64,000 bases of DNA from Pseudomarimonas arenosa (GCF_014841215.1 NZ_JACYTR010000019.1:14177-78176); one strand, 5' to 3'; positions 3,282 to 49,884 are shown, counted from the stretch's first letter. The notes: generated from the letters alone by a model not told the origin. A program made the numbers and translations.

Positions 3282-5693
3282 ATGAGCATGAACGAGGCGG
3301 ATACTCGCTACCACCTCATTGATCCGGTGTTGCGCGAGAAGGGTTACGTCAGCCGCGACCGCATTACGCTGGAAACGGTGCTCACGCCTCCGCCTGTAGA
3401 ACCGAGTGGCCCCAAGGGACGCCGCCGCAATGGACCGGGCCGCACCGACTACTTGTTGTGCGTGCAAGTCGGCGATGCACCGAGGCCCATGCCGGTTGCC
3501 GTGCTGGAAGCCAAGAAGGAAGCCGAAGACCCCTTGAAGGGCATGCAGCAGGCCAGAGGCTATGCGGATACGCTGCGCTTTGACGTCAAGTACGTGTTCT
3601 CGACCAACGGACACCGATATGGCGAATATGATCGGTTCACTCAACTGATTAACGGCCCGTCTCCGTTTTGCGATTTCCCCTCGCATCCGGATCTGACCGC
3701 ACGCTACTGCCAGGACACGGGTATTGACCTGGGTCGATCGGCGTCCGCCATGCTGTTTCAGGCCGACAGCCCCGCGTGGGCCGAAAGTCGCTACTACCAA
3801 GATGCCGCGATCCGCGCCGCGTTCGAGAAGATCATTAGTGACGGCCAGGCCGGCAAGGCGCCGCGGGCGCTGCTCTCGCTAGCCACTGGCGCCGGCAAGA
3901 CCATTATCGCCACCAACTTGCTTTGGCGGCTATCCCAGGCCGGACAGTTGCCCAAACCCGCTTTGTTCCTTTGCGATCGTGATGAGTTGCGAGGGCAAGC
4001 CTACACCAAGCTCAAGGCCGCATTCGGCGACAACGCCCGCATCGTGCGCAGCGAGCGCGGCGGCAATGCGGCGGCCAACGCCCGCATCCACATCGCCACC
4101 TACCAAACGCTGGGCTTGGACGATGAAGAAGGCTTCGCCAGCTTCCTGACCGAGCACTACGGGGAAGACGCTTTCAGCGTCATCATCATCGACGAGTGCC
4201 ACCGTTCGGCCTGGGGCCGATGGTCTGAGGTGCTGCGGCGCAACCCCAGTGCCATCCACATCGGCCTGACCGCCACGCCGCGCAAGCTGGAGGAGTCCGA
4301 CAAGGCCTCGAAGGAAGACCAGGAGATCACGGCCAACAACCGGCAGTACTTCGGCGAGCCGGTGTACGAGTACACCCTGATCCAGGCCCAGGAGGACGGT
4401 TACCTGGCCGCCTGCGAGATCGTGAAACGAAAGGCGAGCATCGATAGCGCCACCTTCACGAAGAAGGAGATCCTGGCCGCTGGCGTCAAGGACATCAAGA
4501 CAGGCATGCCGCTAACCGAAGAAGACCTGGCCAAGGACGAATACACCGGCAAGGACTTCGACGACGAGCTCTTCATCGAGCTGCGCACACCCAAGATGTG
4601 CGCCGACCTGTTCGAGCTGCTGCGCGAGAACGGCGGGCCGGAACAGAAGGTCATCATCTTCTGCACCCGCGAGATTCATGCTGACCGCGTCGCTCAGCAC
4701 ATGAACAACCTGTACGTGCGCTGGTGCAAGGAGCGGGGCCACACGCCCAAGGACCACTACGCCTTCAAGTGCATGGGCGGCGCTAACAACGGCGCCAACA
4801 TGATCGAGCCGATGCGCGGCTCGGGCGAGCGCGCCTTCATCGCGTGCACCGTGGACCTGTTGGAGGCCGGCGTCGACATCGAGCGGCTGAACGCCGTGGT
4901 GTTCTTCCGCTACCTGCAATCCTCGATCAAGTTCTACCAGATGGTCGGGCGCGGCACGCGCATTCACGAAGAGACGCAGAAGTACAAGTTCTGGCTCTAT
5001 GACTACACCGACGTCACGAGCCTCTTCGGTACCGACTTCATCACCAAGCCTCCGCGGCCCGGAAGTGGCGGCAGCGGCAACGGAGAAGGTGGTGGTGGAA
5101 CCGGCGGTGAAGAAGACAATGGTCCGCGAGTCGCTGAGATCAGCGGCCAGTACGTAACGGTGAACGCCCAGGGGCACTTCATCCTCAGCCGCCGCGATGG
5201 GCGCGACACGCCGATCCCGGTGGACGAATACCGGCGCGAGGTGATTCAGCGCGTGATTGCCGAAGCGCACAACCTCGACGAGTTCCGCGCGCTGTGGATC
5301 GAAACCCAGAAGCGTCGCAGCCTCATCGACCACCTGCTGGGTGACAACTTCAGCCCCGAGGTGATTCGCGAGATTGACCAGATGACCGACTTCGACCTCT
5401 ATGACTTCTTCGGCCACCACGGCTACCACGCCCGCGCCCTGCGGCGCCCCGAGCGTGGGGATCTGTTCATCCGTAGTCAACAGCCATGGTTCGACGGCAT
5501 GGACCCCAAGGCCGCCATCGTGCTGAGGGGCCTGGGCCACCAGTTCGCGGCGGGCGGCACCGATGCGCTGGAAACGCCGGCGCTTTGGGAGGTGCCGGAG
5601 ATCATGATGGCCGGTGGCCTGGATGCGCTGCGTGGGCTCGGCAAGCCCATGGACGTGATGCGCGAGGCGAAGGGAAGGTTGTTCGGGGTATGA
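3282..5693 (+). CDS. hsdR: Type I restriction enzyme R subunit (HsdR)
   Basis: N-terminal HSDR_N signature (NEADTRYHLIDPVL). SF2 helicase motifs: motif I ATGAGKT, motif II IIIDECHR, helicase C. Followed by hsdS and hsdM. Confidence 0.9.
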   Translation: MSMNEADTRYHLIDPVLREKGYVSRDRITLETVLTPPPVEPSGPKGRRRNGPGRTDYLLCVQVGDAPRPMPVAVLEAKKEAEDPLKGMQQARGYADTLRFDVKYVFSTNGHRYGEYDRFTQLINGPSPFCDFPSHPDLTARYCQDTGIDLGRSASAMLFQADSPAWAESRYYQDAAIRAAFEKIISDGQAGKAPRALLSLATGAGKTIIATNLLWRLSQAGQLPKPALFLCDRDELRGQAYTKLKAAFGDNARIVRSERGGNAAANARIHIATYQTLGLDDEEGFASFLTEHYGEDAFSVIIIDECHRSAWGRWSEVLRRNPSAIHIGLTATPRKLEESDKASKEDQEITANNRQYFGEPVYEYTLIQAQEDGYLAACEIVKRKASIDSATFTKKEILAAGVKDIKTGMPLTEEDLAKDEYTGKDFDDELFIELRTPKMCADLFELLRENGGPEQKVIIFCTREIHADRVAQHMNNLYVRWCKERGHTPKDHYAFKCMGGANNGANMIEPMRGSGERAFIACTVDLLEAGVDIERLNAVVFFRYLQSSIKFYQMVGRGTRIHEETQKYKFWLYDYTDVTSLFGTDFITKPPRPGSGGSGNGEGGGGTGGEEDNGPRVAEISGQYVTVNAQGHFILSRRDGRDTPIPVDEYRREVIQRVIAEAHNLDEFRALWIETQKRRSLIDHLLGDNFSPEVIREIDQMTDFDLYDFFGHHGYHARALRRPERGDLFIRSQQPWFDGMDPKAAIVLRGLGHQFAAGGTDALETPALWEVPEIMMAGGLDALRGLGKPMDVMREAKGRLFGV

Positions 5694-6934
5694 ACGAAGC
5701 AACATCGACGCCTCCATTCCCGCGTAGGCTTGTCCGAATCTCGGACGTGGCCGCGACTGCCAGCGGGACGACTCCGTCGAGGGATCAGAGTCGCTACTGG
5801 AAGCCCGCAGAGATCCCGTGGGTAAAGACCGGGGAAATCCACTTCGCCCCGATTCGAAGGACAGAAGAAGCCGTATCAAGAATCGCACTCGACGAGTGCT
5901 CGCTACCGCTTCTCCCGCCGGGCACCGTGCTGGTGGCGATGTACGGTCAAGGCAAAACGCGAGGCCAATCTGCTGTTCTTGAGATCGAAGCAACAACAAA
6001 CCAAGCGTGCTTCGCGGTTTTGCCGACTGAAGCGTTCGCACCTGAATACCTTCAGTACTGGTTCCAATTCTCGTACTCGACGCTTCGTCAGTCGTCGGAA
6101 GGGAGGGGCGGAAACCAGGCGAACTTGAACAGCGAAATCCTGGGCAACCTCGAAGTGCCGTGGGTTGAGAGGGAAGAACAGCTCCGAATCGCTGCTCGCC
6201 TTCATGCCCAGCTTGCCGACGCGGAAACCGTTCGACGAGCTGCTCAGGCGCAACGCGAGTCTGCCGAGGCCCTTGTGGCCGCGATCTACCGCGAAGCCTT
6301 CGCGCAAGTGGTGCCCGTGGCTGTACCGCCGGCGTTTGACGAACCGCCACCCGGGTGGCAGTGGCGCAAACTCACCGACGTGGCACGACTCGAAAGTGGC
6401 CATACCCCGAGCCGGTCGCGATCAGACTGGTGGGGCGGTGATGTGTCGTGGATCTCGCTGACCGAAATTCGTGCCCTGGATGGCCAGTGGGTCGAAAGCA
6501 CGCAACTGCGTACCAACGCAGCGGGTATCGCCAATTCGGCAGCGCGAATCCTGCCGCGTGGGACGGTGTGCTACTCGCGCACGGCATCCGTGGGCTTCGT
6601 GGTCATCATGGCCAAGCCCATGGCAACGAGTCAGGACTTCGCAAACTGGGTGTGTGGCGATGCCCTCGACCCGGAGTTCCTGATGCACGCGCTCATCCGT
6701 GCCCGCAAGGAACTGCGTGACCTCGCCACTGGCGCGACGCACAAGACGATCTACATGCCGACGCTGGAATCCTTCCGCGTCTGCGCGCCCGATATCGACG
6801 CCCAGCGCCGCATCGTCCGCGGCCTCAAGCAGCGCTTGGAGGAGGCATCAGCCCTACGCGCTGCGCTGGATGCACAGCAGGCAGAACTAGCGAAGCTGCC
6901 CCAACGCCTGCTCGCCCAAGCCTTCGAGAACTAA
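5690..6934 (+). CDS. hsdS: Type I R-M specificity subunit (HsdS), about 414 aa
   Basis: ATG at 5690 overlaps the hsdR stop (ATGA). The N-terminal and central regions read as two target-recognition-domain-like halves. Sits between hsdR and hsdM. The 5486 upstream start in the ORF track is an in-frame read-through of the hsdR 3' end. Confidence 0.8.
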   Translation: MNEATSTPPFPRRLVRISDVAATASGTTPSRDQSRYWKPAEIPWVKTGEIHFAPIRRTEEAVSRIALDECSLPLLPPGTVLVAMYGQGKTRGQSAVLEIEATTNQACFAVLPTEAFAPEYLQYWFQFSYSTLRQSSEGRGGNQANLNSEILGNLEVPWVEREEQLRIAARLHAQLADAETVRRAAQAQRESAEALVAAIYREAFAQVVPVAVPPAFDEPPPGWQWRKLTDVARLESGHTPSRSRSDWWGGDVSWISLTEIRALDGQWVESTQLRTNAAGIANSAARILPRGTVCYSRTASVGFVVIMAKPMATSQDFANWVCGDALDPEFLMHALIRARKELRDLATGATHKTIYMPTLESFRVCAPDIDAQRRIVRGLKQRLEEASALRAALDAQQAELAKLPQRLLAQAFEN

Positions 6935-6936
6935 AC

Positions 6937-8865
6937 ATGGCCCGACCCAAGAAGACCGACAAAGCCCCCAAGGCCATCGCCAGCACCCAATCGCTCTCGG
7001 CCTTCGTCAAGAGCATCTGCGACGTGATGCGCCGCTCGAACTGCGCGAGTGCGCTGCAGTACGTGCCGGAGCTGACCTGGATCTTGTTCCTGCGCATCCT
7101 CGACGCGCAGGAGGTGCGCGACCAGGAGAAGGCCGAAGCCGTGGGCGCGACTTTCATGCCAGCACTGCGCGCGCCGTACCGCTGGCAGGACTGGGCGGCG
7201 CCCCCGCCGAAGAATGAATCCGACAAGCCCGGGCACCCGAAGACACCTGAGGGCAAGCCCTTCGGCTGGAAGCGGCAGGAACTGTTTGCGGCCGGCGACG
7301 GCAAGCTGTTCGACTTCATCAACAAGGAACTGCTGCCCCACCTGCACAGCCTGGACGTGGACCCGCGCACCAACCTGCCTATGCCCGGCGCCACGCCGAA
7401 GCAGCGCATCATCGGCCGCACGATGACAGCGGTGGAGCGCGTGCGTGTGGACTCCGAGACCAACCTACGCGACATCCTCGACAAGGTGCACGAGATCAGC
7501 GTCGACCACATCGACGACCAGCACTTCTTCACGCTGTCGCAGGTATACGAGGACCTGCTGCTGAAGATGGGCGAGAAGAACTCCGACGGTGGCCAGTTCT
7601 TTACCCCGCGCGAGGTGATCCGCGCGATGGTGCACACGGTGGACCCCCAGCTCGGGCAGACGGTGTACGACCCCTGCTGCGGCACCGGCGGTTTCCTCGC
7701 CATCGCTTACGAGCACATCAATCGCAAGCTGGGGACGCAGGCCCGCAGCACCGACATTGACGCGCTCAAGCACGATACCTTCTTCGGCCGCGAGAAGGAG
7801 AACCTGGTGTTCCCCATCGCGCTAGCCAACCTGGTGCTGCACGGCATCGACCAGCCCAACCTGTGGCACGGTAATTCGCTGACGCGGCGTGCCACCTACG
7901 GCGCGCTGTTCGACAAGGCCCCCAAGCTGTTCGACGTGATCCTGACCAACCCGCCCTTCGGCGGCAAAGAAGGCAAGGACGCGCAGAAGAACTTCGCGTT
8001 CGAGACCAGCGCCACGCAGGTGCTGTTCGTGCAGGACATCCTCGCCGAACTGGCGCCGGGCGGCACCTGCGCCATCGTGCTGGACGAGGGCCTGCTGTTC
8101 CGCACCAACGAGAGTGCCTTCGTTGAGACCAAGCGCAAGCTGGTGGACGAGTGCGAGCTGTGGGCCATCCTCAGCTTGCCGGGCGGCGTGTTCTCCACCG
8201 CCGGCGCGGGCGTCAAGACCAACCTGCTGTTCTTCACCAAAGGCCGCAAGACCGAGCGCATCTGGTACTACGACCTGTCGCAGGTAAAGGTGGGCAAGAA
8301 GACGCCGCTGACCCTGGCGCATTTCGGCTTCGCCCCGGATGGCTCGGTGCTGAACGATGCCGCGCTGCCCGCCGCGCTGGTCGCTGACTGGCAGGCCGAT
8401 GAAGCCAACAAAGGCAAGCCCTTCCCGAGCTACGCCCGCCAGCTGGCGCGGCGCGGCACGCCGGAGGCCGACAGCCGCTGGTCCTGGACGGTCGACTTCG
8501 CCGCCCGCCGCGCCAAGGCGAGCGAGGAGATGCAGCCCCTGCTCGATGACGCCGCCAAGCTCAAGGCCGAGGTGGTGGACCTCAAGGAGCAGTTGAAGCG
8601 CCTGAAGAAGGAGAAGGCTGCCGATGACGTGCTGGAAGCGCACGATGCAAAGATCCGCGAGAAGGACAAAGCGGCGCGTGAACTTGAATCACAAGCTGCT
8701 GCCATCGATGCAGCGGTGTTCGATCTGAAAGCCGTCAATCCGAACACGGTAGCGACCGTGGACAAGCGAACGCCGGCGGAAATCATCGACAGCATCGAAT
8801 CGCACGGTAGGTTGGTCAGCGATGCCTTGGCCCGGCTGCGAAATCTGTTGCGCGAGGCGGCGTGA
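6937..8865 (+). CDS. hsdM: Type I R-M N6-adenine DNA methyltransferase subunit (HsdM), with a C-terminal coiled-coil extension
   Basis: N6_Mtase motifs: NPPFGG, and the SAM-binding stretch DPCCGTGGFL. C-terminal 100 aa is Lys/Glu-rich coiled coil. Confidence 0.9.
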   Translation: MARPKKTDKAPKAIASTQSLSAFVKSICDVMRRSNCASALQYVPELTWILFLRILDAQEVRDQEKAEAVGATFMPALRAPYRWQDWAAPPPKNESDKPGHPKTPEGKPFGWKRQELFAAGDGKLFDFINKELLPHLHSLDVDPRTNLPMPGATPKQRIIGRTMTAVERVRVDSETNLRDILDKVHEISVDHIDDQHFFTLSQVYEDLLLKMGEKNSDGGQFFTPREVIRAMVHTVDPQLGQTVYDPCCGTGGFLAIAYEHINRKLGTQARSTDIDALKHDTFFGREKENLVFPIALANLVLHGIDQPNLWHGNSLTRRATYGALFDKAPKLFDVILTNPPFGGKEGKDAQKNFAFETSATQVLFVQDILAELAPGGTCAIVLDEGLLFRTNESAFVETKRKLVDECELWAILSLPGGVFSTAGAGVKTNLLFFTKGRKTERIWYYDLSQVKVGKKTPLTLAHFGFAPDGSVLNDAALPAALVADWQADEANKGKPFPSYARQLARRGTPEADSRWSWTVDFAARRAKASEEMQPLLDDAAKLKAEVVDLKEQLKRLKKEKAADDVLEAHDAKIREKDKAARELESQAAAIDAAVFDLKAVNPNTVATVDKRTPAEIIDSIESHGRLVSDALARLRNLLREAA

Positions 8866-10823
8866 TTGTGACTGACCAGCCCATCCAAAACTCCCTGTTC
8901 GAGGAAGACTATCTTCTGCGCGAGCTCGGGCAAGTCGCGCATGTGCCGCAGGTTGCACTCACCGAGTTGGTCGCCAACGCATGGGACGCAGGGGCATCCA
9001 AGGTCGACCTGATTCTGCCCGATCACCTCGACGGAACTCTGACCGTGACCGACGACGGGCACGGTATGACACCGGAGCAATTCAAGAAGCGCTGGATGAC
9101 GTTGCGCTATGACCGCCTCCGCCATCAGGGCGCTAACGTCGAGTTTCCGCGTGGTCGGAATGCGCGGCCACGTCGGTCATACGGCCGCAACGGCGTAGGA
9201 CGACATGGCTTGTTGTGCTTCGCCGACGAGTACCAGGTGGAAACCTGGCGTGACGGTGTGTTAGCTACCTTTGTCGTCGGCACAGAGTCGGGGCCGAGCC
9301 CTTTTGTTCTGAGAAGCGAAACCCTCGGGCGATGCGAAGGAAGCGGTACGCGGCTCTCGGTCAGCGTGACGCGCAACCTACCCGATGCCTACGAAATCTT
9401 GACCGTACTGGCCGCTCGCTTCGTTCACGATCAAGAGTTCGAGATTCGCGTCAATGGCGCCCAGAGGTCTTTCAACGAGATTGAAGGCCGAGTCAGCGAG
9501 GAAACGTTGGTGCTAGGCCACGGCCGGACCGCCAAGGTAACCGTGATCGACTCGACCCACGTGAATCACTCGTCGGTGCACCAGGGTATCGCTTTCTGGG
9601 TGCAGGGACGACTGGTCGGCTCGCCATCTTGGACCATCGGGCAGGTCGCAAGCTTCGATGGACGAACACGTTTTGCGCGCCGCTACAAGGTCATCGTCGA
9701 CACTCAAGGGTTCGAGTCCGACGTTGAGCAGGATTGGACGGCGTTTCGTGCAACGGAGGATGTTCGAGACCTGCATCGAGCGACCGCTGAGCATATCGGC
9801 AAAGTGGCGCAGGACCTCGCATCATTTGTTGTCGAGGCGGCATCCGAGGACGCGCTAACACAAAACCGAGCGGAGCTCGCCTCACTTGGGCAAGGCGCCC
9901 GGCTTGAAGTCGCCGAATTCACCAAGGTCGTCGCCCAAGAACACCCAACGATTTCGCCCGACTTTCTGGCTACCGCCGTCAAGGCCGTTATCAATCTGGA
10001 ACGAACCAAGAGCGGCGCGGCGTTGCTGCAGAAGCTGTCTTCATTGCCGCCTGACGACGTCGACGGGCTCGATCGCCTACTCACCGAGTGGTCGATCAAG
10101 GACGCGCTTCGTGTTCTCGACGAGATCGACAGTCGAATCAGTGTGATTGAAACCATTCAGCGCTTGGCTGATGACCCGCACACCGACGAGCTTCATACGC
10201 TGCACCCACTGATTCTTCGCTCGCGATGGTTGTTTGGGCCTGAATTCGAGTCGCATGAATATTGTTCGAACGTCACGTTGAAGTCGGTGGCGCGCGAGCT
10301 TTTCAAGAGCACTGAAGCTCAGTTCATCAATGAACGACAGCGTCCCGACATTGTTGTGCTGCCTGACAAGACCACGTGGCAGATGACGGGCATCGAATCC
10401 TTCAATCCTGCAGATCCAACGCTCACGCAGATTCAGAACGTACTTGTTATTGAGCTCAAGAAGGGCGGATTCGAGCTAACGCGCAAGGAAGTGAACCAAG
10501 CTGACGGTTACGTGCAAGACATTGCTCAATCTGGTGCGATGTCAGGCGCGCCGCACGTTTGTGCTTGGGTAGTGGGGCAGACGATCGGGGCGGGCGTAGA
10601 GCGCGATAAACGGCTCGGCAATCCAGAATATGGTCGGGTCCGAGCTGCCACATTCGCCTGGTTGGTGGACACGGCAAACGCTCGACTGCTTCGACTGCGG
10701 ACTGTGCTGGCAGACCGCTATGGCGGCGCAACTACAGACGGTCTACTCAATCGCGTCCTCTCCTCACATCCGCAGATGGACTTAACATATCGTCAGGGTG
10801 TTGCGAATGTCGGCATTAAATAG
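8862..10823 (+). CDS. GHKL/HATPase_c (MORC-like) ATPase, N-terminal, fused to a C-terminal PD-(D/E)xK-like region; defence-associated, function unknown
   Basis: Bergerat-fold N-box and G1 box (ELVANAWDAGAS ... DDGHGM) in the first 70 aa. C-terminal D...(E/V)xK-like pattern (RPDIVVLPD ... VLVIELKKGG). GTG start overlaps the hsdM stop (GTGA). Confidence 0.65.
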   Translation: MIVTDQPIQNSLFEEDYLLRELGQVAHVPQVALTELVANAWDAGASKVDLILPDHLDGTLTVTDDGHGMTPEQFKKRWMTLRYDRLRHQGANVEFPRGRNARPRRSYGRNGVGRHGLLCFADEYQVETWRDGVLATFVVGTESGPSPFVLRSETLGRCEGSGTRLSVSVTRNLPDAYEILTVLAARFVHDQEFEIRVNGAQRSFNEIEGRVSEETLVLGHGRTAKVTVIDSTHVNHSSVHQGIAFWVQGRLVGSPSWTIGQVASFDGRTRFARRYKVIVDTQGFESDVEQDWTAFRATEDVRDLHRATAEHIGKVAQDLASFVVEAASEDALTQNRAELASLGQGARLEVAEFTKVVAQEHPTISPDFLATAVKAVINLERTKSGAALLQKLSSLPPDDVDGLDRLLTEWSIKDALRVLDEIDSRISVIETIQRLADDPHTDELHTLHPLILRSRWLFGPEFESHEYCSNVTLKSVARELFKSTEAQFINERQRPDIVVLPDKTTWQMTGIESFNPADPTLTQIQNVLVIELKKGGFELTRKEVNQADGYVQDIAQSGAMSGAPHVCAWVVGQTIGAGVERDKRLGNPEYGRVRAATFAWLVDTANARLLRLRTVLADRYGGATTDGLLNRVLSSHPQMDLTYRQGVANVGIK

Positions 10824-10876: not shown

Positions 10877-11530
10877 ATGGCTAACCACTATGCCAGCCTG
10901 AATCCGGACAAAGCACTGATTTGGCGTATTGTCCATGCTGACAATCTCTCATGGATACTCGATAACGGCTTGCACTGTGGCAACGGCGGTGTGGTCGCGC
11001 CAGGGTGGGTGAGCATCGGGAATCCAGAGCTGATTGATAAGCGCGCCAACCACCCCGTGCCGGTGCCTCCCGGTGGCTGCCTTAATGATTATGTGCCCTT
11101 CTATTTCACCCCGTTCTCTCCGATGCTGCGCAACATCAACACCGGATGGGGCGGAGTTCAGAAGCGGCCCAACGACGAGATATTGATTCTTGTTTCAAGC
11201 TTGCGCCACGTTGCAGAGCAAGGGTGGCCGTTCCTATTTACGGACAGTCACGCCTATTACCTGTGGGCCAATTTCTACTCAGAACTGACAGATTTGGACA
11301 AAGTCGATTGGCCTCTGCTGCAGGCGCGGGATTTTCGACGTGATCCGGATGATCCCGCCAAGTTCGAGCGTTATCAGGCGGAGGCCTTGGTATATCGGCA
11401 CTTGCCGATTAGTGGCCTGCTTGGCATTGTGTGCTACACCGATCAGGTAAAGCGCGCTGTTGAGGATCAGCTCGGGCGAAGAAACCTAAGCCTGCCTGTC
11501 CATGCTCGCGCCGGATGGTACTTCCGATGA
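10877..11530 (+). CDS. darT: DarT, ssDNA ADP-ribosyltransferase toxin (DUF4433)
   Basis: Strong matches to the DarT core: [36 protein letters not shown]-terminal GWYF. About 217 aa. Followed by a macrodomain gene with ATGA overlap. Confidence 0.9.
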
Positions 11531-12597
11531 TTACATTCACCCAAGGCAATCTGCTGGAGGCCCGCGTCGAGGCGCTGGTCAATACCGTCAACACTGTCGG
11601 CGTGATGGGCAAGGGCATAGCGCTCATGTTCAAGGAGCGATTCGCTGAGAACTTTCGCCTCTACGCTGCAGCCTGCAAAGCCAACGAGGTGCAGGTTGGA
11701 AAAATGTTCATCACTCCTGTCAGTGAATTGGACGGCCCGCGGTGGATTGTTAATTTTCCGACCAAACAACATTGGCGTGGTGATTCCAAGATTGAATGGA
11801 TCATTGAGGGTTTGCAGGATCTCCGGCAATTCGTGACGAGTAGTCAGATCAAGTCCATTGCCATTCCTCCACTGGGCGCGGGAAACGGCGGATTGGAATG
11901 GGCCGAAGTCAGAGCCCAGATCGAGGAAGTGCTTGCTGGCTTGGATAGCGAGATTCTCGTATTTGAGCCGACGCAAAAGTACCAAAACGTGGCCAAACGA
12001 GCGGGCGTAGAGAAGCTGACCCCGGCGCGCGCGCTAATCGCTGAAGTGGTGCGTCGATACTGGGTGCTCGGCATCGATTGCAGCATGCTGGAGATCCAGA
12101 AGCTGGCTTGGTTTCTGGAACGCAATATTGAGCGAATGGGGCTCCAGCCGCTTGATCTGCGCTTCGTGCCCCACAAGTATGGTCCCTACGCCGATCGGCT
12201 GCGCCATTTGTTGAACGGGCTGGATGGGAGCTACTTGCACTGCGACAAACGAGTAGGGGATGCCGATCCTCAAGACGTTATCTGGTTCGATGACGCGCGC
12301 AAGGCGGTGGTCCAGGCCTATCTCAAGAGCGAGGCAAAGGAATACGCTGCAGCATTGGAGGCCACTTCAACACTGATTGATGGCTTCGAGTCTCCTTTTG
12401 GTTTGGAGTTGCTTGCGACAGTGGATTGGCTATTAAAGGAGGGGGTATCACCGACCGTCTCTGCGGTCAGTTCGGGCTTGCGAGATTGGAGTGGTGATCC
12501 GGAGGCAGCGGAACGTAAGGTTAGGTTGTTCAACGAACGGGCGCTGAGCGTTGCGCTCAATCGCCTCGCGCCAAGCGCAACCGCTGCGGCAACTTGA
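11527..12597 (+). CDS. darG: DarG, macrodomain ADP-ribosyl-DNA glycohydrolase antitoxin with a C-terminal DarT-binding domain
   Basis: N-terminal macrodomain motifs ([20 protein letters not shown] ... [13 protein letters not shown]). About 356 aa. ATG at 11527 overlaps the darT stop. Confidence 0.85.
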
Positions 12598-13026: not shown

Positions 13027-13103
13027 GGCTATGTAGCTCAGCCGGTTAGAGCACGGCACTCATAATGCCGGGGTCGGTGGTTCGAGTCCACCCATAGCCA
13101 CCA
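13027..13103 (+). tRNA. tRNA-Met (anticodon CAT), elongator-type
   Basis: GGCTATGTAGCTCAGCCGGTTAGAGCACGGCACTCATAATGCCGGGGTCGGTGGTTCGAGTCCACCCATAGCCACCA folds as a canonical cloverleaf. Very similar to E. coli tRNA-Met (metT). A Lys-tRNA-Ile2 is not excluded. Confidence 0.85.
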
Positions 13104-13233
13104 ACAGATCCAGCTGCCTAAGCAGCCAGCCGCACAACCTCGCCTTGCGCGGGGTTTTGTGTTTTTGGCGTCAGCGCATGGTCGTCTGATCCGCGTTTCG
13201 AGGCGTTGCACGAGATGGCGAACTCCGGGCTAG

Positions 13234-41334: not shown

Positions 41335-43389
41335 TTGGAGTCAAGCATGGACATGACCACTTTGATGCTCATCATTACCGTCGGCGGCGTGATCGTTGCC
41401 GGCGTGTTGAGTCTCTTTGCCATCCTGAAGATGTTCTACATCAAGGTGCCGCAGGGTACCGCGCTGATCGTCAACGATCTGACCGCCACGCCGAAGGTGC
41501 ATTTCACCGGTGCCCTGGTCTGGCCGGTGATCCACAAAAAGGAGTTCATGAAGATCTCCTTGATCACCCTGGAGGTCGATCGGCGCGGCAAGGATGGCCT
41601 GATCTGCCGCGACAACATGCGCGCCGATATCACCGTTGCCTTCTATCTGCGGGTGAATGAGACCCAGCAGGACGTGCTGAAGGTGGCCAAAGCCATCGGC
41701 GTCGATCGCGCCTCGGAAAAGAACGCGGTCAATGAACTGTTCAACGCCAAGTTCAGTGAGGCGCTGAAGACGGTCGGCAAGAAGATCGACTTCGTTGCCT
41801 TGTTCGAGAACCGGCAGGAATTCCGTGACCGCATCATCGAGGTGATCGGCAACGATTTGAACGGTTACATCCTGGAAGACGTGGCGATCGATTATCTGGA
41901 GCAGACGCCGAAGTCCTCGCTGGATCCGAACAATATTCTCGATGCCGAAGGCATTCGCAAGATCACCGAGCTCACCGCCACCCAGAACGTGGTGACCAAT
42001 GAGTTGGAGCGCAACAAGGAACTGGCGATCCAGAAGAAGAACGTCGAGACCAAGGAATCGATGCTGGCATTGGCGCGTCAGCAGGCCGATGCCGAAGCCA
42101 AGCAGCAGCGTGAGATCGCCACCATCCAGGCGCGCGAATCGGCCGAGACCCTGCGCGTGCAGGAAGAAGAGCGGCTGAAGGCCGAACAGGCGCGCATCGC
42201 CACCCAGGAACAGCTCGATATCCGTGAGCAGAATCGGATGCGTGAAGTTGAAGTGGCTGAGCAGAACCGCCAGCGCGCCGTGGTGATCGAGATCGAAAAG
42301 GTCGCCCGCGCCAAGGCACTGGAAGAAGTCGCCCGCGAACGCGAAGTCGAACTGCAGCGGATCGAGAAAGAGCGCGCCCTGGAAGAGCAGCGCAAGGAAA
42401 TTGCCAATGTCATCCGCGAGCGGGTGGTGGTCGAAAAATCGGTGGCAGTGGAAGAAGAGCGGATCAAGGAAGTGCGCGAAATCTCCGAAGCCGAGCGCCT
42501 GAAGCAGGTCACCATTCTTGATGCCCAGGCCAAGGCAGAGGAAGAGCTGGTTAAGCAGGTCAAGCAGGCCGAAGCCGACGAAGCCAAGGCCAAGCACAAG
42601 TCGGTCGAGATCACCATCCTGGCTCAGGCCGAACTGGAAGCCGCCGGCAAACAGGCCGAAGCCAAGCGCAAGCTGGCCGAAGGTATCGAGGCCGAGCGTG
42701 CCGCGCCGGGCCTGGCCGATGCGCGGGTGCGCGAAGTGACCGCGGCGGCGATGGAAAAGGAAGGTCTGGCCAAGGCCAAGGTGATCGCCGAGCAAATGGC
42801 GGCCGAGGCGCGCGGCGAGCAGGACAAAGGTGTGGCCCAGGCCAATGTGATCGAGGCGCAGGCCGAAGCGCGGCGCAAGGAAGGTCTGGCCGAGGCCAAG
42901 GTGCTGGAAGAAAAGCTGAGCGCGCAGGCGCGGGGCGAGGAACAGGTCGCGCTGACCAAGGCCAAGGCCACCCAGGAGGTCGGCAATGCCGAGGCGGCGG
43001 TGCTGCTGGCCAAGTTCGAAGCCGAGGCCAAGGGTCTGGCGGAGAAGTTCGGCTCGCTGGAAGCGCTCAGCGACAAGGCGCGCGCCCACGAAGAGTTCCG
43101 CATGCAGCTGGAAAAGACCTTCGAGCAGACCGTGCGCGGCATCGAGGCGAACGAAAAGATCGCCCGCGAACAGGCCGATGTGCTGGCCGCCGCGCTCAGC
43201 AAGGCCAAGGTCGACATCGTGTCCGGCGGCGGCGACTACTTCAACAGCCTGGCCCGCGGCATGGGCATGGGCAAGATGGTCGAGGGCGTGACCGGCTCCA
43301 GTCCGATCGTCGGTGACCTGCTGCAGCGCTTTCTGGGCAACACCCCGAAGAAGCCGGAAGCGCCGTCGGCTAACGATACCGAGCAGTAA
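41335..43389 (+). CDS. Flotillin/SPFH (band-7) family protein, YqiK-like
   Basis: N-terminal TM. SPFH domain. Long Ala/Glu/Lys/Arg coiled-coil region (EA-repeat-like) typical of flotillins. Confidence 0.85.
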   Translation: MESSMDMTTLMLIITVGGVIVAGVLSLFAILKMFYIKVPQGTALIVNDLTATPKVHFTGALVWPVIHKKEFMKISLITLEVDRRGKDGLICRDNMRADITVAFYLRVNETQQDVLKVAKAIGVDRASEKNAVNELFNAKFSEALKTVGKKIDFVALFENRQEFRDRIIEVIGNDLNGYILEDVAIDYLEQTPKSSLDPNNILDAEGIRKITELTATQNVVTNELERNKELAIQKKNVETKESMLALARQQADAEAKQQREIATIQARESAETLRVQEEERLKAEQARIATQEQLDIREQNRMREVEVAEQNRQRAVVIEIEKVARAKALEEVAREREVELQRIEKERALEEQRKEIANVIRERVVVEKSVAVEEERIKEVREISEAERLKQVTILDAQAKAEEELVKQVKQAEADEAKAKHKSVEITILAQAELEAAGKQAEAKRKLAEGIEAERAAPGLADARVREVTAAAMEKEGLAKAKVIAEQMAAEARGEQDKGVAQANVIEAQAEARRKEGLAEAKVLEEKLSAQARGEEQVALTKAKATQEVGNAEAAVLLAKFEAEAKGLAEKFGSLEALSDKARAHEEFRMQLEKTFEQTVRGIEANEKIAREQADVLAAALSKAKVDIVSGGGDYFNSLARGMGMGKMVEGVTGSSPIVGDLLQRFLGNTPKKPEAPSANDTEQ

Positions 43390-43425: not shown

Positions 43426-43465
43426 TAGAGCTTGAGCAAGTCCGGACCACGGAGTGCTACCCCGC

Positions 43466-46400
43466 ATGGCCAACAATGAGAAATCTGCAGCCACTGAACA
43501 GGTCGATACCGCGATCACCGATCAGGCGGTGGCCGAGGGTGGCGCCTATGAGGTTTTGCGCAAGCGACTGAGTGATCAAGGCAGTCAGCTGAAAGTAGCG
43601 GCCGAGGCGCTGAATGCTGAGCGGCTGGCAGCCTTCGGCAGCAGTGAGCTGAAGGTGATCGGCCGGCTGCGGGTGCGCACCGAACACAATTGCGTGCCGC
43701 GCGATCTGGTCCAGGTCGGGGAGTGTCTGCTGTTCGGCTACAACGTGTTCCTCGGGCTGAAAAAGGAAACCCAGGTCGACGACGTATTTGCCCTGTACAA
43801 ACTGGTTGAGGGGACAGAGGGTTTCGATGTCGAGCCGCAGGCGCTGAAGGGCAGTTTCCTCGATCAGGCCAGCTTCGTCGCCGATTTCAAGGAGCTGTAC
43901 GCCTACTACAAGAACACCCGGCTGCTGCAACTGGTACGCAAGGATGAGTGGCTGCTGGCCAGTTTCCAGATCGGCGATCGGATCAGTGATGTGCGGGTGT
44001 TCCGCTGGAGCGTCTCAGCCGATGGTCAAACTATTCGTTATGTGGACAACCGTGGCGAACGCGATATCGCCCTGCCACCGAACTACGACTTCGAGTGGAC
44101 CCGCTGCGGCCGTGAGCATGCGGTCGAGGGGCGTCATCCGCATCTGAATATTCTCGATACGGTATTCGTCGAAACCGTGGGTGGCGACCTCACGGTCAAG
44201 ATCGAGAACAACACCAATGATGGCCTGGGTATCTATCGCGAGCCGGTCGATGACCAGACCCAGAGTCTGGACGATGCCAAGGTTGATTTCGCCAAGGTCG
44301 GCAGCCTGATCTTGCTGCGCATCCTGCCCTACCGCGAAACCCAGTCGCGCTATCTGGCCTACAACACCCTGACCCGCGAAGTTCGGCGGATCGATGCCAT
44401 CGGTCAGGCCTGCGTGCAATTGCCGGAGGACCACGGCATCGTCTTTCCCGGCGGCTATCTGCTGCAGAACGGCGAATACCGCCAGTTCGAGCAGTCAATG
44501 GCTGGCATGCGCTTCAAGCGGATGATCCGCTCGCCCAATGGCGAGGACGTGCTGTACATCTTCTACGAGCCCGAGGACGGTCGCTTTGCCCTGTTCACCT
44601 ACAACCTGATCGAGCGCAAGCTGCAGCCACCGCTGTTCGGTCACGGTTATGCCCGCTATGACGATGGGCGGATCGTGTTGTTCAGCATGCAGGGCAGTGA
44701 GGCAACCCGCGTGCATCCGATGCAGATCTGGCAGACCGCCTTCTGCAGTGATGAGTTCGCCGCCCAGCAGCCGGCCAAGCAGGGCTTTGCCGGCCGCATC
44801 GGCAATGCCGAATTGGTGCGTGGTGTTTCCAATCTGCTCAATCTCTGCCGTGAGATTGAGGCGGAGAAGGTCTCCCAGGCGCGCTATGAGCGGCTGATCG
44901 CCGACGCCCGCAAGCTGTTCGATCTGCATCACTGGCTGGCCGAGTCGCACTGTGAACAGGCCGCTGCTGTGGTGCGCAGCATCGCCCAGTGCAGCGAGCT
45001 GGTGATCGACGAGTTCGTCAAGGTGGAGGCAATTCGCGCATCCGCCGAGCGCGCCTTGGCCGAGGCGCGTACCCTGCAATCGCAGCTCAAGCGCGAATGC
45101 CTGCCGGAACGCTGCGAGGCGATCGCCGATTTTGTCACCGCCCTTAACAGGCTGTCACGACAGCGCGGTCATCTGCTCAGTATTCGTGAGTTGCGCTATA
45201 TGGATGTGGCGGCCATCGATGCCATGGGCGGCGATCTACAGGCCTGGCATGACGAGCTGTCCAGGTCCACTGCCGCGTTTCTCGACCGGCCCGAAGCCCT
45301 GGCTGACCTCGCGGCGCAACTCGATGCTCAGGAGAAGCAGCTCGGCATGGCGGAGAACGCCGCCAAGTTGCGTGAGCTGGTCGAAGCGCTGAAGCAAAGC
45401 GCGGCCGATCTCGATCTGCTCAGCCAGCTGCTGGCCGGGTTGCCGGTGGATGACGCCGAACAGCGTACCCGCATCGTCGAGGCGATCTCGGCCCTGTATG
45501 CGCGGCTGAACCAGATCCGTGCCCGCGCCGAGGCCAAGCGCAAGCAGCTTGGCAGCGCCGAGGCGGTGGCCCAGTTCGGTGCCCAGTTCCATCTGTTCTC
45601 GCAATCGGTGTCGGCAGCTCTGGCCGATGCCCGCGACCCCGAGGCCTGCGACGATGCGTTGGCCAGGGTGTTGGTGCAGCTGGAAGGGCTTGAGGGCCAG
45701 TTCGGCGAACACGAGCAGTTCCTGCAGGACATCCTGGCCAAGCGCGAGGAAGTGCTGGAGGCGTTCGAGTCGCACAAGCAGACCTTGCTCGATGAACGTC
45801 AGCGCCGCGCCCAGGGCCTGCACGATGCCGCGGTGCGCATCATCGATGGTCTGCCGCGGCGAACCGAGAAGTTCAGTGGCGCTGATGAGCTGAACAGTTT
45901 CTTTGCCGGTGACGCCCTGATCCTCAAGCTGCGCGACCTGGTCGAGCGCCTGCGTGGCTTCAAAGACAGCGTCAAGGCCGACGATATCGAAGCGCGGCTG
46001 AAAGCCTGTCGCGACCAGGCCGCGCGTCGGCTGCGTGATGCCAGCGAGCTGTTCGAGGACGGTGGCAATCTGATCCGGCTGGGTCGGCACCGCTTCAGTG
46101 TCAACCGGCAGGAACTCGATCTCACCCTGATTCCACGCGGCGAGCGACTCTGCCTGCATCTCACCGGCACCGATTTCTTCCAGCCGATTCAGGCTGACCA
46201 GCTCGATTCGATGCGGCCCTTCTGGGAGGCCTCGCTGCCCTCGGAGTCGGCCGAGCTGTCGCGTGCCGAATACTTAGCTGGTGCTTTCCTCGAGGCGGCC
46301 GAGCGTGGCGAGGAGGGGCTCGATGCCGGTCTGCTCATTCCGGGCAAGGATCAGGCCTCGGCGCTGGAGCAAGCCTTGCGCAAGTTCGCTGCCGCGCGTT

Positions 46401-48652
46401 ATCGCGAAGGCTATGAGAAAGGCTTGCACGATCATGATGCAGCACGGATTCTGGCCGCCTGGGCGCCACTGCGACAAACCGCCGGCCTACTGCGTTTTGC
46501 GCCTGGCGCGCGCGCCCTGGCCATGCATGCCTGGAAGGCGCTGCGCGAGGGCATCGGCAAGCGCTGGCCGGAACGGGCGCGGGCGGCGGCCCGGCTGCGG
46601 GCACAGTTCGACGATCGAGCGGCCTGCGAACAATGGGTTAAGGAGATCGCCACCGACTTGCTGGCGCCTGCTGAAGCGCTGGATTTTGCCAAGGACCAAG
46701 CCCGGCAGGCAGCGGCCTACCTGTTCGAGGTGCTGGCCGAGCCGCATCCGCAGTTCGCCTTCAGTCGCCCCGCGCACGACCTGCGCGATGCCCTGCAAAG
46801 GGCTCTGGCCAATGATGATGGCTGGCGAAATCTGTTGCAGAGCGCCGCCGAACTGCAGGATTTGCCCAGGCTGCAACGCGAATTGATCCTCCATGCATTG
46901 AACGCCTTGTTGCGTCGTCAGCCCAAGGCCGGCGAGCCGCGCTATGTCGACGAGGCCGCAGCCCTGATTCTGCTCGCCGATCACTTGCCGAATCGTTTCA
47001 GCGAGGCCGACCTCAGTGTCGAGGTGCAGGGCTTGCTATCTGCGCATCAGCGCATTCAGGAAGGACGACTGCCAATTGCGGTGGATGACCTGGACGCACG
47101 ACTGGCCCACCACCGCCAGCACTATCTGCCGCAGCTGCAGCGTTTCCAGTCGATACGGCATGCCGAACTGGAAACGGCACGCGAACGCATGCGGCTGGGC
47201 GAATTCAAACCGCGGCCGCTGACCTCGTTCGTGCGCAATCGGCTTATTGATCAGGTCTACCTGCCGCTGATTGGCGACAACCTGGCCAAGCAGATGGGCA
47301 GTGTCGGCGAGGGCAAGCGCTCCGATCTGATGGGCCTGTTGATGCTGATCTCGCCGCCTGGCTACGGCAAGACCACCTTGATGGAGTACACCGCGCACCA
47401 GCTCGGTCTGATCTTCATGAAGATCAATGGGCCGTCGCTGGGTCATGAAGTGCGCTCGCTGGATCCGGCGCAGGCGCCCGATGCCAATGCCCGGCAGGAG
47501 CTGGAAAAGCTCAATCTGGCGCTGGAAATGGGCAATAACGTGATGCTGTATGTCGACGACATCCAGCACACCCATCCGGAGTTCCTGCAGAAGTTCATCT
47601 CGCTCTGCGATGCCACCCGCCGCATCGAAGGCGTGTACGGCGGCCGCACCAAGACCTATGACATGCGCGGCAAGAAGTTCTGCGTGGTGATGGCCGGCAA
47701 CCCGTATACCGAATCCGGCGACTTGTTCCGCATTCCCGACATGCTGGCCAACCGCGCCGACGTGTACAACCTGGGTGACGTGCTGGGCGGCATGCAGGAG
47801 GCCTTCCTGCTCAGCTATATCGAGAACAGTCTGACCTCGAGCCCGGTGCTGGCGCCGCTGGCCACCCGTGGCATCGAGGATCTGTACAAGCTGGTCGACA
47901 AGATTGCCGGCAAGGGTTTTTCTGCCAGCGCCTTGGCGCATAGCTATAGCGCCGCCGAACTCAGCGATATGGAGGCCGTGCTGAGTCGCCTGATGAAACT
48001 GCGTGATGTGGTGTTCAAGGTCAATCAGCAATACATCGCCAGTGCCGCCCAGGCCGAGGCCTACCGCACCGAGCCGGCATTCAAGCTGCAGGGCAGCTAC
48101 CGCAATATGAACAAGCTGGCGGAAAAGGTGTCGGCGGTGATGAATGAGGCCGAGCTCGATCAGTTGGTGCGTGATCACTATCTCGGTGAATCGCAGCTGC
48201 TCACCCATGGCGCCGAGGAGAATCTGCTCAAGCTCGGTGAGCTGCTCGGCACGCAAAAGGCTGAAGACAAGACGCGCTGGGAGCAGATCAAGGCCGACTT
48301 CCGCCGGCTGAAGGCGATCGGCGGCGCCGATTCTGACACCGGCACACGGGTGGTGGCCCAGCTGCACGATCTGGTTCAGGGGGTGAACTCGCTCAAGGCC
48401 AGCGAGCCGGTCGAAGCAGCGGCGAGTCCGCCCTGGTCGCACCTTTCCGATCTGCTGGAACGGATTGTCAACGAACAAACCTTGGCGCGTAACTTCAATC
48501 GCGATGCCGCCACCGACAGCGCCATGTTCTTGAGCGGTCTGCGCAATGCCCTGGAACTTGGCTTCAAGCCCCTGGTCGAGGCGGCCAAGACTCGCAGCGA
48601 ACAGCAGGATGTGTTGATCGAGTTGCTGAAGCGACTGACTAAGAAGCCGTGA
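43466..48652 (+). CDS. Giant (about 1728 aa) multidomain protein with a C-proximal MoxR/AAA_5-like P-loop ATPase module; function unknown
   Basis: Walker A LISPPGYGKTTL and Walker B VMLYVDDIQH. MoxR-like sensor stretch VVMAGNPYTESGDLFRIPDMLANRADVY, around residue 1290-1450. Preceded by about 1250 aa of mixed beta (N-terminal about 420 aa) and long alpha-helical/coiled-coil sequence. Confidence 0.7.
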   Translation: MANNEKSAATEQVDTAITDQAVAEGGAYEVLRKRLSDQGSQLKVAAEALNAERLAAFGSSELKVIGRLRVRTEHNCVPRDLVQVGECLLFGYNVFLGLKKETQVDDVFALYKLVEGTEGFDVEPQALKGSFLDQASFVADFKELYAYYKNTRLLQLVRKDEWLLASFQIGDRISDVRVFRWSVSADGQTIRYVDNRGERDIALPPNYDFEWTRCGREHAVEGRHPHLNILDTVFVETVGGDLTVKIENNTNDGLGIYREPVDDQTQSLDDAKVDFAKVGSLILLRILPYRETQSRYLAYNTLTREVRRIDAIGQACVQLPEDHGIVFPGGYLLQNGEYRQFEQSMAGMRFKRMIRSPNGEDVLYIFYEPEDGRFALFTYNLIERKLQPPLFGHGYARYDDGRIVLFSMQGSEATRVHPMQIWQTAFCSDEFAAQQPAKQGFAGRIGNAELVRGVSNLLNLCREIEAEKVSQARYERLIADARKLFDLHHWLAESHCEQAAAVVRSIAQCSELVIDEFVKVEAIRASAERALAEARTLQSQLKRECLPERCEAIADFVTALNRLSRQRGHLLSIRELRYMDVAAIDAMGGDLQAWHDELSRSTAAFLDRPEALADLAAQLDAQEKQLGMAENAAKLRELVEALKQSAADLDLLSQLLAGLPVDDAEQRTRIVEAISALYARLNQIRARAEAKRKQLGSAEAVAQFGAQFHLFSQSVSAALADARDPEACDDALARVLVQLEGLEGQFGEHEQFLQDILAKREEVLEAFESHKQTLLDERQRRAQGLHDAAVRIIDGLPRRTEKFSGADELNSFFAGDALILKLRDLVERLRGFKDSVKADDIEARLKACRDQAARRLRDASELFEDGGNLIRLGRHRFSVNRQELDLTLIPRGERLCLHLTGTDFFQPIQADQLDSMRPFWEASLPSESAELSRAEYLAGAFLEAAERGEEGLDAGLLIPGKDQASALEQALRKFAAARYREGYEKGLHDHDAARILAAWAPLRQTAGLLRFAPGARALAMHAWKALREGIGKRWPERARAAARLRAQFDDRAACEQWVKEIATDLLAPAEALDFAKDQARQAAAYLFEVLAEPHPQFAFSRPAHDLRDALQRALANDDGWRNLLQSAAELQDLPRLQRELILHALNALLRRQPKAGEPRYVDEAAALILLADHLPNRFSEADLSVEVQGLLSAHQRIQEGRLPIAVDDLDARLAHHRQHYLPQLQRFQSIRHAELETARERMRLGEFKPRPLTSFVRNRLIDQVYLPLIGDNLAKQMGSVGEGKRSDLMGLLMLISPPGYGKTTLMEYTAHQLGLIFMKINGPSLGHEVRSLDPAQAPDANARQELEKLNLALEMGNNVMLYVDDIQHTHPEFLQKFISLCDATRRIEGVYGGRTKTYDMRGKKFCVVMAGNPYTESGDLFRIPDMLANRADVYNLGDVLGGMQEAFLLSYIENSLTSSPVLAPLATRGIEDLYKLVDKIAGKGFSASALAHSYSAAELSDMEAVLSRLMKLRDVVFKVNQQYIASAAQAEAYRTEPAFKLQGSYRNMNKLAEKVSAVMNEAELDQLVRDHYLGESQLLTHGAEENLLKLGELLGTQKAEDKTRWEQIKADFRRLKAIGGADSDTGTRVVAQLHDLVQGVNSLKASEPVEAAASPPWSHLSDLLERIVNEQTLARNFNRDAATDSAMFLSGLRNALELGFKPLVEAAKTRSEQQDVLIELLKRLTKKP

Positions 48653-48818
48653 TTGGTGATTCGGGATTCGGGATTCGGGCGGCGCGCCGCAAGGTGGCTC
48701 GAAGCCATCGATTTTGGCGCGGACAGCAGGCGCGTCCCGGCCTCGCCCCCAAGCTAGCCCGTCCATGGCACAATCGGAGTGTGGCTGGGATTGGCCGGGT
48801 ACCGACTGGGCGCACTCG

Positions 48819-49853: not shown

Positions 49854-49884
49854 CCCGGCTATTTCATGAGGGGACGCGGATGCC

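Follow-up and report, generated by a model that had tools for sequence, protein, structure and literature searches.

A mobile GHKL-ATPase/PD-(D/E)xK-nuclease gene coupled to unrelated Type I restriction operons: a probable single-gene defence system of the paraMORC3/GHKL-type Shedu class

Introduction

What is a gene for a GHKL ATPase fused to a nuclease doing at the end of a Type I restriction-modification (R-M) operon? The question is raised by a stretch of 64,000 nucleotides from Pseudomarimonas arenosa (NZ_JACYTR010000019.1:14177-78176; this whole stretch is called the window below), in which an open reading frame (ORF) for a protein of 653 aa, here named X (8862..10823, + strand), begins on the stop codon of hsdM and is followed by the toxin-antitoxin genes darTG. 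The original prediction, made from the DNA alone, took X for a MORC-like ATPase joined to a nuclease-like domain, for a defence component of an undescribed kind and for a partner of the Type I system, carried on one transcript with it and with darTG. We find that X belongs to a poorly annotated GHKL-nuclease subfamily and is not a new Type I restriction module. With a probability that we put at about 0.65, it is a self-contained, ATP-regulated defence nuclease of the paraMORC3/GHKL-type Shedu (type 1D) class.

This class has been approached from two sides. The paraMORC3 proteins were delineated by Iyer, Abhiman and Aravind (2008) as GHKL and S5 domains followed by a C-terminal RecB-like nuclease with an E-D-ExK motif; they are common in proteobacteria, laterally mobile, often standalone and partly located in R-M neighbourhoods, and the authors suggested that paraMORCs loop DNA within R-M systems (PMC2292703). 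Gu et al. (2023) described Shedu type 1D as a HATPase_c_3 GHKL fold with an Hsp90/MORC-like middle domain ("N24") and found 602 of 5,499 Shedu genes in R-M loci, Type I included (PMC10441436). The two lines meet in VcSduA, a type I-D, GHKL-type Shedu (GHKL + DUF4263) from the WASA lineage of pandemic Vibrio cholerae that protects Escherichia coli against T1-like phages and V. cholerae against phage X29. VcSduA is sufficient alone, its protection is non-abortive, and defence is abolished in the ATPase mutant E27A and the nuclease mutant K557A; VcSduA-like proteins were equated with paraMORC3 in that study (Adams et al. 2025, PMC12137116).

Results

Domain organization and catalytic residues of X

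The ORF, its GTG start and the motifs that had drawn attention to it are all present: ELVANAWDAGAS at aa 35-46 (nt 8964-8999), DDGHGM at aa 64-69, RPDIVVLPD at aa 494-502 and VLVIELKKGG at aa 527-536. X has the same sequence as an "ATP-binding protein" from P. arenosa (formerly Pseudoxanthomonas sp.) CAU 1598, which NCBI records in 653-, 651- and 635-aa versions. Its N-terminus (aa ~14-190; 8901..9431, + strand) is a GHKL (Bergerat) ATPase domain with motif I (E35/N39/D42), motif II (D64xGxG68), motif III (G108..G111xG113) and motif IV (G162-T163); the sole Pfam match of the protein, HATPase_c_3, falls here (aa 30-135, E=2.4e-15, 57.2 bits against a cut-off of 25). A beta-rich transducer or middle domain follows (aa ~191-297; 9432..9752, + strand), in which R250, W257, D266, R268, D291, W292 and F295 are nearly invariant, and then a helical arm or linker of five long helices (aa ~298-436; 9753..10169, + strand), modelled by AlphaFold at residues 299-436 with a predicted local distance difference test score (pLDDT) of 70-95. 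The C-terminal PD-(D/E)xK nuclease domain (aa ~437-620; 10170..10721, + strand) carries E443, W456/G459, N470, R494-P495-D496, E531-L532-K533 and Q546xxxY550. The AlphaFold model as a whole (pLDDT 82) shows the same succession of GHKL domain, beta-rich transducer, ~140 residues of long helices and an alpha/beta C-terminal domain.

Conservation singles out the same residues. In an alignment of 49 relatives that are 27-69% identical to the window protein, the invariant columns coincide exactly with two catalytic signatures, one in the GHKL domain (E35, N39, D42, D64, G66, G68, G111, G113 and G162) and one in the nuclease domain (R494-P-D496, E531-L-K533 and Q546xxxY550, with E443 conserved in at least 90%). 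All 49 match HATPase_c_3. The predicted fusion of a GHKL ATPase to a PD-(D/E)xK domain is thus upheld; the C-terminus bears an E-D-ExK-QxxxY nuclease signature, from which we infer nuclease activity. Database searches with this half of the protein returned little. Pfam at E<=10, queried with the C-terminal 253, 453 and 273 aa, gave a weak hint of HSDR_N_2 (E=0.19) alone, and when the C-terminal domain was compared with PDB sequences, singly and as a profile, nothing meaningful emerged (a beta-mannanase, LSm3 and ATP synthase gamma, all at E>0.1). Foldseek comparison of the C-terminal model with the PDB gave no match at E<=0.001; the weak top matches were McrC, NucS, EcoT38I and Can2, with NucS the best structural match to the nuclease domain.

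Relationship to paraMORC3, Shedu and VcSduA

X has the features by which paraMORC3 is defined, namely a GHKL domain, a transducer and a C-terminal nuclease of the restriction-endonuclease fold with E-D-ExK; it is placed there by definition, not by alignment to the founding sequences. Its agreement with type 1D of Gu et al. (HATPase_c_3 plus an Hsp90/MORC-like middle domain) is likewise a match by description. The relationship to VcSduA could be examined at the level of sequence for the first ~420 residues, the part taken from preprint supplements. Over this part, hhalign aligned aa 1-300 of X with a nine-sequence profile of the VcSduA family in 238 collinear columns (97.3%, E=1.8e-11), superposing motifs I-IV, placing E35 on E27 and running on through the transducer domain. 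A collinear transducer match to two VcSduA-family sequences was also obtained with HMMER. Close sequence kinship to the VcSduA family was not found, and the N-terminal homology is seen by profile-profile comparison only. At the start of the nuclease, the order of motifs in X and the VcSduA family is alike by eye (E..L.H.L..P / WL....H / PDIxVL); this likeness is visual only, the X-family profile giving no significant alignment with the partial nuclease region of the VcSduA homologue from Pseudomonas St290. Full-length hhalign alignments of X with VcSduA, as a single sequence or as the nine-sequence profile, scored highly and were rejected as artefacts of helical or compositional bias because they were non-collinear, laying the X C-terminus on the middle of VcSduA, and had negative similarity.

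Evidence from Shedu models is mixed. The PADLOC SduA model PDLC00401 matches 15 of the 49 relatives weakly (best E 2e-4), the window protein not among them, over a segment consisting of a helix and E..PL..W.FG (aa 416-464 in relative P0185). Taking this together with the remote homology to VcSduA, we file X in the paraMORC3/GHKL-Shedu class, in a subfamily distinct from the one tested. The architecture is one already described under both names and represented by a relative with proven defence activity, and the idea of an undescribed kind of protein falls accordingly. The MORC family sensu stricto was rejected as an assignment; X has neither a MORC S5 nor a CW domain.

A related N-terminal module of the HATPase_c_3 type may be common to the X family and two other defence proteins: Tiamat TmtA, whose PADLOC model matches 22 of the 49 members weakly, and MzaB, with weak matches in 17. 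Where members were scanned individually, these matches lay in the GHKL domain.

Distribution and genomic neighbourhoods

The family is large and uniform. Among 1.84 billion cluster representatives (clusters at 50% identity) there are at least 1,920 relatives at E<=1e-3 and 301 at E<=1e-30, nearly all full-length members being ~640 aa long; a relative is encoded in at least 536 genomic stretches from 185,579 species genomes. It is also patchily distributed across phyla, with gamma- and betaproteobacteria sharing copies that are 80-85% identical. Relatives lie beside defence genes on plasmids and on islands flanked by an integrase or a tRNA gene. The plasmid copies adjoin AbiEii or HepT genes and have no annotated R-M gene within 7-8 kb; a megablast search of plasmids returned hsdM fragments only, and a tblastn search of phages for X returned nothing.

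We surveyed context at ~80 loci from species genomes, supplemented by metagenome contigs, and took an iterative census of the 7-kb flanks of 81 non-redundant loci with hidden Markov models (HMMs); loci are numbered L001 onwards where they must be told apart. Both hsdM and hsdS occur within 7 kb in 16 of the 81 loci and any R-M-like gene in 22, leaving ~59 with none. The immediate neighbours are highly diverse: no family occurs in more than 6 of 131 neighbour proteins, and clustering by BLASTP revealed no conserved partner besides the hsd genes. They are also rich in defence functions, among them Methylase_S, Eco57I/MmeI, AAA_15/21, Schlafen, KAP, GmrSD, Gabija, KwaB-like, AbiEii and HepT proteins. 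Such diversity, together with the small number of hsd loci, indicates that the family behaves as a defence system of a single gene, for which R-M loci and their surroundings are a frequent landing place, as has also been reported for Shedu. A role as an extra Type I subunit was considered and set aside for the family at large, consistent co-occurrence with hsdM/S/R being confined to the clade of proteins that share 69% identity or more with the window protein (79-85% for most of them).

Within this window clade the picture is different. The usual order is hsdR-hsdM-(YhcG)-hsdS-X, and hsdS and X have 8 nt in common in eleven loci (L001, L005, L007, L010, L011, L012, L027, L068, L091, L092 and L093). 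With the window, this makes 12 loci, from three unrelated Type I lineages, in which the final hsd gene and X are translationally coupled. The window protein is 83% identical to that of L001 and yet stands behind a different operon, R-S-M-X, whose HsdR and HsdM share only 28-32% identity with their counterparts elsewhere and whose HsdS shows no detectable similarity to theirs; L041 adds a third operon type, R-M-S-ATPase-X. At the DNA level the similarity between loci keeps within the ORF, running from 8869-8896 as far as 10524-10762, or 10720-10762 for the seven loci that are closest. With DNA homology so confined and unrelated hsd genes on its flank, we conclude that a single cassette has become start-coupled to Type I operons of at least three unrelated kinds.

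The same operons carry other cargo. A YhcG/DUF1016 gene, also of the PD-(D/E)xK type, lies between hsdM and hsdS in several of the related operons (L005:7691-8854, L092:5682-6845, L091:5664-6854 and L007:8549-8827) and is cut to 92 aa in L007/L008. In Zoogloea (L091:5246-9932), hsdR and hsdM have decayed to ORFs of 30 and 105 aa, and YhcG-hsdS-X persists intact among metabolic genes.

Another group of copies, 75% identical, is found in Photorhabdus, Yersinia nurmii, Rahnella and Y. pestis NCTC5923 (L016, L017, L018 and L072). Here X is start-coupled, by a 20-nt overlap, to a GmrSD-type gene (DUF262+DUF1524) with an integrase adjoining, an arrangement that recalls the GrwAB-VcSduA neighbourhood of V. 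cholerae; in L016 an MmeI-type enzyme comes next, and the iterative-HMM census places one after X in L018 too. The Y. pestis gene appears truncated, its match ending at aa 367. Elsewhere relatives adjoin Gabija (an OLD-TOPRIM ATPase with a UvrD helicase; L093:10164-14005), a KwaB-like gene (L079:8853-9761), a cytidine deaminase with HATPase_c_4 (L031:10054-11586) and a dynamin-like GTPase with a PLD-like MIT_C domain (L057:7140-9962).

The pairing with darTG is rare, X preceding these genes in just three loci, the window and two of the 81, so that a general tie between the two is not borne out. In Nevskia sp. (L013:9986-13660), the copy of X, 80% identical, overlaps darT by 8 nt, and DarT and DarG are 81% and 79% identical to those of the window; hsd genes are absent, the flanks encoding housekeeping functions (GGDEF/EAL and aldehyde dehydrogenase). 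In a metagenome-assembled genome of the Pseudohongiellaceae (L041:9956-14592), an unrelated DarTG pair (24% and 39% identical) is separated from X by a DUF4357 gene.

Organization of the locus in the window

Six genes on one strand make up the block hsdR-hsdS-hsdM-X-darT-darG, with identities confirmed by Pfam, PADLOC and NCBIfam. The restriction subunit HsdR (3282..5693, + strand; 803 aa) has Pfam domains ResIII, Helicase_C and EcoEI_R_C and matches PADLOC REase_I (E=5e-78); the specificity subunit gene hsdS (5690..6934, + strand; start set at the ATGA overlap) has two stretches of Methylase_S (E=3.7e-30); and the methyltransferase HsdM (6937..8865, + strand; 642 aa) matches N6_Mtase (E=3e-53), HsdM_N and PADLOC MTase_I (1192 bits). 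Downstream of X lie darT (10877..11530, + strand), for a single-stranded-DNA ADP-ribosyltransferase toxin (Pfam DarT E=1.7e-51; NCBIfam toxin_DarT 252.9 bits against a cut-off of 150), and darG (11515..12597, + strand), for its macrodomain antitoxin (NCBIfam antitoxin_DarG 433.4 bits against 250; PADLOC DarG E=1e-123). Successive genes are spaced by an ATGA overlap (hsdR/hsdS, 5690-5693), 2 nt, the GTGA overlap of hsdM and X, the predicted 53 nt and a 16-nt overlap. We found no credible terminator inside the hsdR-darG block. The single transcript that had been proposed is consistent with this spacing and stands as a prediction drawn from it.

In the GTGA overlap, the X start codon GTG (8862-8864) shares nucleotides with the hsdM stop TGA (8863-8865). 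A second GTG at 8868 is the start in GenBank MBD8526235.1 (651 aa) and is better spaced from the GAGG at 8854-8857, lying 10 nt past it as against 4 nt for GTG 8862; with either codon X is tightly coupled to hsdM, as judged from these positions.

On the right the block is followed by a tRNA-Met gene (13027..13103, + strand; ARAGORN) and, 3' of it, the sole strong terminator-like hairpin found (13136-13156). Beyond the tRNA the genes (UvrD, Kdo transferase, lipoamide dehydrogenase) resemble a core genome, and the tRNA-Met gene is likely where the island ends on the right, or its attachment site. The hsd genes have a GC content of 0.63-0.65, which drops to 0.55-0.58 across darTG and the 3' half of X and suggests that these last two arrived together. 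The drop, the tRNA gene and the terminator suggest a mosaic assembly of an hsd block and an X-darTG block. Just 5' of hsdR are genes for an AAA_30/TraI-RecD-like helicase and a ParA-family ATPase (20-1696 and 2256-2924), consistent with the backbone of an integrative or conjugative element reaching past the left end of the window. Further away, an ORF of 1,732 aa (43454-48652, + strand) with DUF3686 ("ATPase involved in DNA repair", E=2e-201), DUF7902 and an AAA segment stands between two large ORFs (41335-43389 and 48714-50487) and may be part of another large defence or repair system.

Discussion

X is almost certainly a defence gene, as had been supposed. Most of its relatives are standalone genes within defence islands. 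The evidence assembled here points to a probable self-contained nuclease. Both predicted active sites are intact and invariant in 49 relatives; the N-terminal half is homologous to that of the VcSduA family, a member of which defends on its own, and the architecture agrees with published paraMORC3 and type 1D proteins. The family is large and of uniform length, its neighbours are diverse and rich in defence genes, and DNA homology is confined to the ORF. We read X as a mobile single-gene cassette. On this view its position, behind hsdRSM, ahead of darTG and close to a tRNA-Met gene, comes from the way the island was put together and from shared expression, and X is no part of the Type I enzyme. 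We infer ATPase activity, dimerisation, a trigger, a defence phenotype and independence from the Hsd proteins. As the original prediction held, no biochemical mechanism is known for the family. By analogy with MutL, Hsp90 and MORC and from VcSduA genetics, one could envision that two N-terminal GHKL domains bind ATP and dimerise, that the transducer and the long helical arms relay the resulting conformational change to the C-terminal PD-(D/E)xK domains, and that the paired nuclease domains would thereby be licensed to cut invading phage or plasmid DNA, ATP hydrolysis resetting the clamp.

Several observations weigh against this assignment. An HMM of the X family scores VcSduA, over its first ~420 residues, at 7.9 bits, collinear and compatible with a remote relation only, and the motif-I strings of the X family occur in none of 543 catalogued VcSduA homologues. 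Pfam DUF4263 (PF14082) is absent from all 49 relatives and from the window C-terminus even at E<=10, and no PADLOC or NCBIfam Shedu model matches the window protein. The predicted defence role of the X subfamily has its experimental precedent in a distant relative alone, VcSduA. Lastly, start-coupling in 12 loci exceeds what simple co-residence predicts.

This last point leads to the question of whether, in the window clade, X is functionally wired to the Type I enzyme. It might act as a second-line effector, either restrained by HsdM/S/R or working together with them, in the manner of PrrC, an ABC-type ATPase-regulated anticodon RNase that is held in check by the Type I enzyme EcoprrI; in a variant, X would act on DNA ends or loops produced by Type I translocation, and its operon position would be functional. 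Such wiring would account for the overlap of X with whichever hsd gene comes last (hsdM in the window, hsdS by 8 nt in 11 loci) and for finding cassettes 79-83% identical (69% in L027) behind Hsd proteins with 28-32% identity in three gene orders (R-S-M-X, R-M-(YhcG)-S-X and R-M-S-ATPase-X). Members ~50% identical also lie in or next to other hsdM/S/R sets (L031, L032, L037, L054, L066, L079 and L083), and hsdM and hsdS accompany X in 16 of 81 loci where chance would give well under 1%, if a genome of ~4 Mb carries one or two Type I systems of ~6 kb. The looping of DNA by paraMORCs in R-M systems suggested by Iyer et al. (PMC2292703) would suit the idea as well. We nevertheless think it unlikely. 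R-M-like genes are missing within 7 kb in ~59 of 81 loci; the 80% identical copy in L013 has no hsd genes, the Zoogloea locus keeps X after the decay of hsdR and hsdM, and in enterobacteria the copies with 75% identity have GmrSD as their coupled partner in place of hsd genes. Unrelated defence genes are often embedded in Type I operons, as YhcG is in these very loci, and VcSduA and canonical Shedu act alone (PMC12137116). The proposal that X is a dedicated Type I partner is therefore abandoned for the family as a whole, given the census counts, the diversity of neighbours and the plasmid copies; for the window clade the repeated start-coupling leaves a functional link weakened and still alive. 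The pattern of capture is compatible with hot-spot behaviour of defence islands. It is tempting to speculate, at rather long odds, that at least three unrelated Type I operons and two unrelated DarTG pairs captured the cassette because it cooperates with them: X could be a guard nuclease freed when anti-restriction proteins inhibit the Type I enzyme, a second layer similar to PrrC and built on a DNA nuclease, or an enzyme acting on DNA ends or loops left by Type I translocation or by DarT-stalled replication.

Three further explanations can be weighed against a self-contained nuclease. X and DarTG might form a module in which X is a sensor of, or backup on, ADP-ribosylated or stalled DNA, an idea prompted by darTG following X in the window (after 53 nt), in L013 (8-nt overlap) and in L041 (an unrelated pair, with DUF4357 between) and by the GC content of 0.55-0.58 common to the 3' half of X and darTG, suggestive of joint arrival; with DarTG an autonomous toxin-antitoxin defence system, and most relatives having no toxin-antitoxin neighbour, we give it very little credence. 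Just as slim are the chances of an enzyme like BbrUII/HgiDII, an ATP-dependent restriction endonuclease similar to Type II, from which an adjacent methyltransferase would protect the host. The N-terminus of X does match NCBIfam restrict_BbrUII (E=5e-23) and PADLOC REase_II (E=1.5e-13), the latter also matched by 45 of 49 relatives, but these matches span only aa ~31-142, in the GHKL domain, and leave the C-terminal two-thirds unmatched; the NCBIfam match reaches 81 bits against a cut-off of 550, and a methyltransferase is absent near most loci. A housekeeping role in DNA repair, as a MutL- or NucS-like mismatch or end-processing enzyme, is the least probable of all: weak matches to the MutL/PMS2 N-terminus and the structural resemblance of the nuclease domain to NucS might suggest it, but the family is patchy across phyla, its 80-85% identical copies are shared by gamma- and betaproteobacteria, and its members sit on integrase- or tRNA-flanked islands and plasmids beside defence genes. 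The original view that X is not a housekeeping MutL/HtpG paralogue is upheld.

If X is the single-gene nuclease that we favour, a very common "ATP-binding protein" annotation receives a name and a testable mechanism. Current models of Pfam, PADLOC and NCBIfam fail to identify the window protein as a nuclease of defence, and annotators therefore probably under-count GHKL-type Shedu/paraMORC3 genes. VcSduA is the only tested distant relative, and the gating of a PD-(D/E)xK nuclease by a GHKL clamp is so far without biochemistry, for which the X subfamily, with highly conserved members and well-predicted domains, would be a reasonable subject. The start-coupling of one cassette to three unrelated Type I operons and its recurrence with unrelated darTG pairs are unexplained; the former offers a concrete test case for whether embedded defence genes cooperate with their host R-M systems.

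It is worth considering where X stands among known systems. With PrrC/EcoprrI it has in common the placing of a nuclease gene inside a Type I R-M operon, or at its end, and co-expression with that operon, which for X is predicted; PrrC, an anticodon RNase, would be a functional analogue solely if X is wired to the Type I enzyme. The closest sequence match of the GHKL domain is BbrUII/HgiDII (NCBIfam NF050001; 659 aa, a similar length), whose model aligns only aa 33-142 of X, at 81.4 bits, and not the full length. Among MORC, MutL and Hsp90 none is clearly closest; X lacks the C-terminal endonuclease of MutL and the C-terminal domain of Hsp90, and differs from all three in having a PD-(D/E)xK nuclease as effector. 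Canonical Shedu SduA proteins (Bacillus cereus 8TI8/8TI9; E. coli 8PS4) have Whirly-type or clamp N-terminal domains unrelated to the GHKL domain of X and form tetramers or octamers, whereas GHKL proteins are expected to dimerise; for the nuclease domain of X, NucS outscores the canonical SduA structures, and Foldseek finds nothing significant in the PDB. VcSduA shares with X the overall architecture, a similar length (673 versus 653 aa) and occurrence as a single gene in defence islands, with GmrSD-type neighbours like those of the enterobacterial copies, but its motif I reads FEAVINS as against ELVANAWDAG in the X family, and Pfam does not recognise it as HATPase_c_3. The paraMORC3 proteins share with X intact GHKL ATP motifs, an S5-type transducer and a C-terminal restriction-endonuclease fold with RecB-like features (QxxxY in X); they are tied mainly to R-M contexts with SF2 helicases and cytosine methylases, whereas X is found at the 3' ends of Type I operons.

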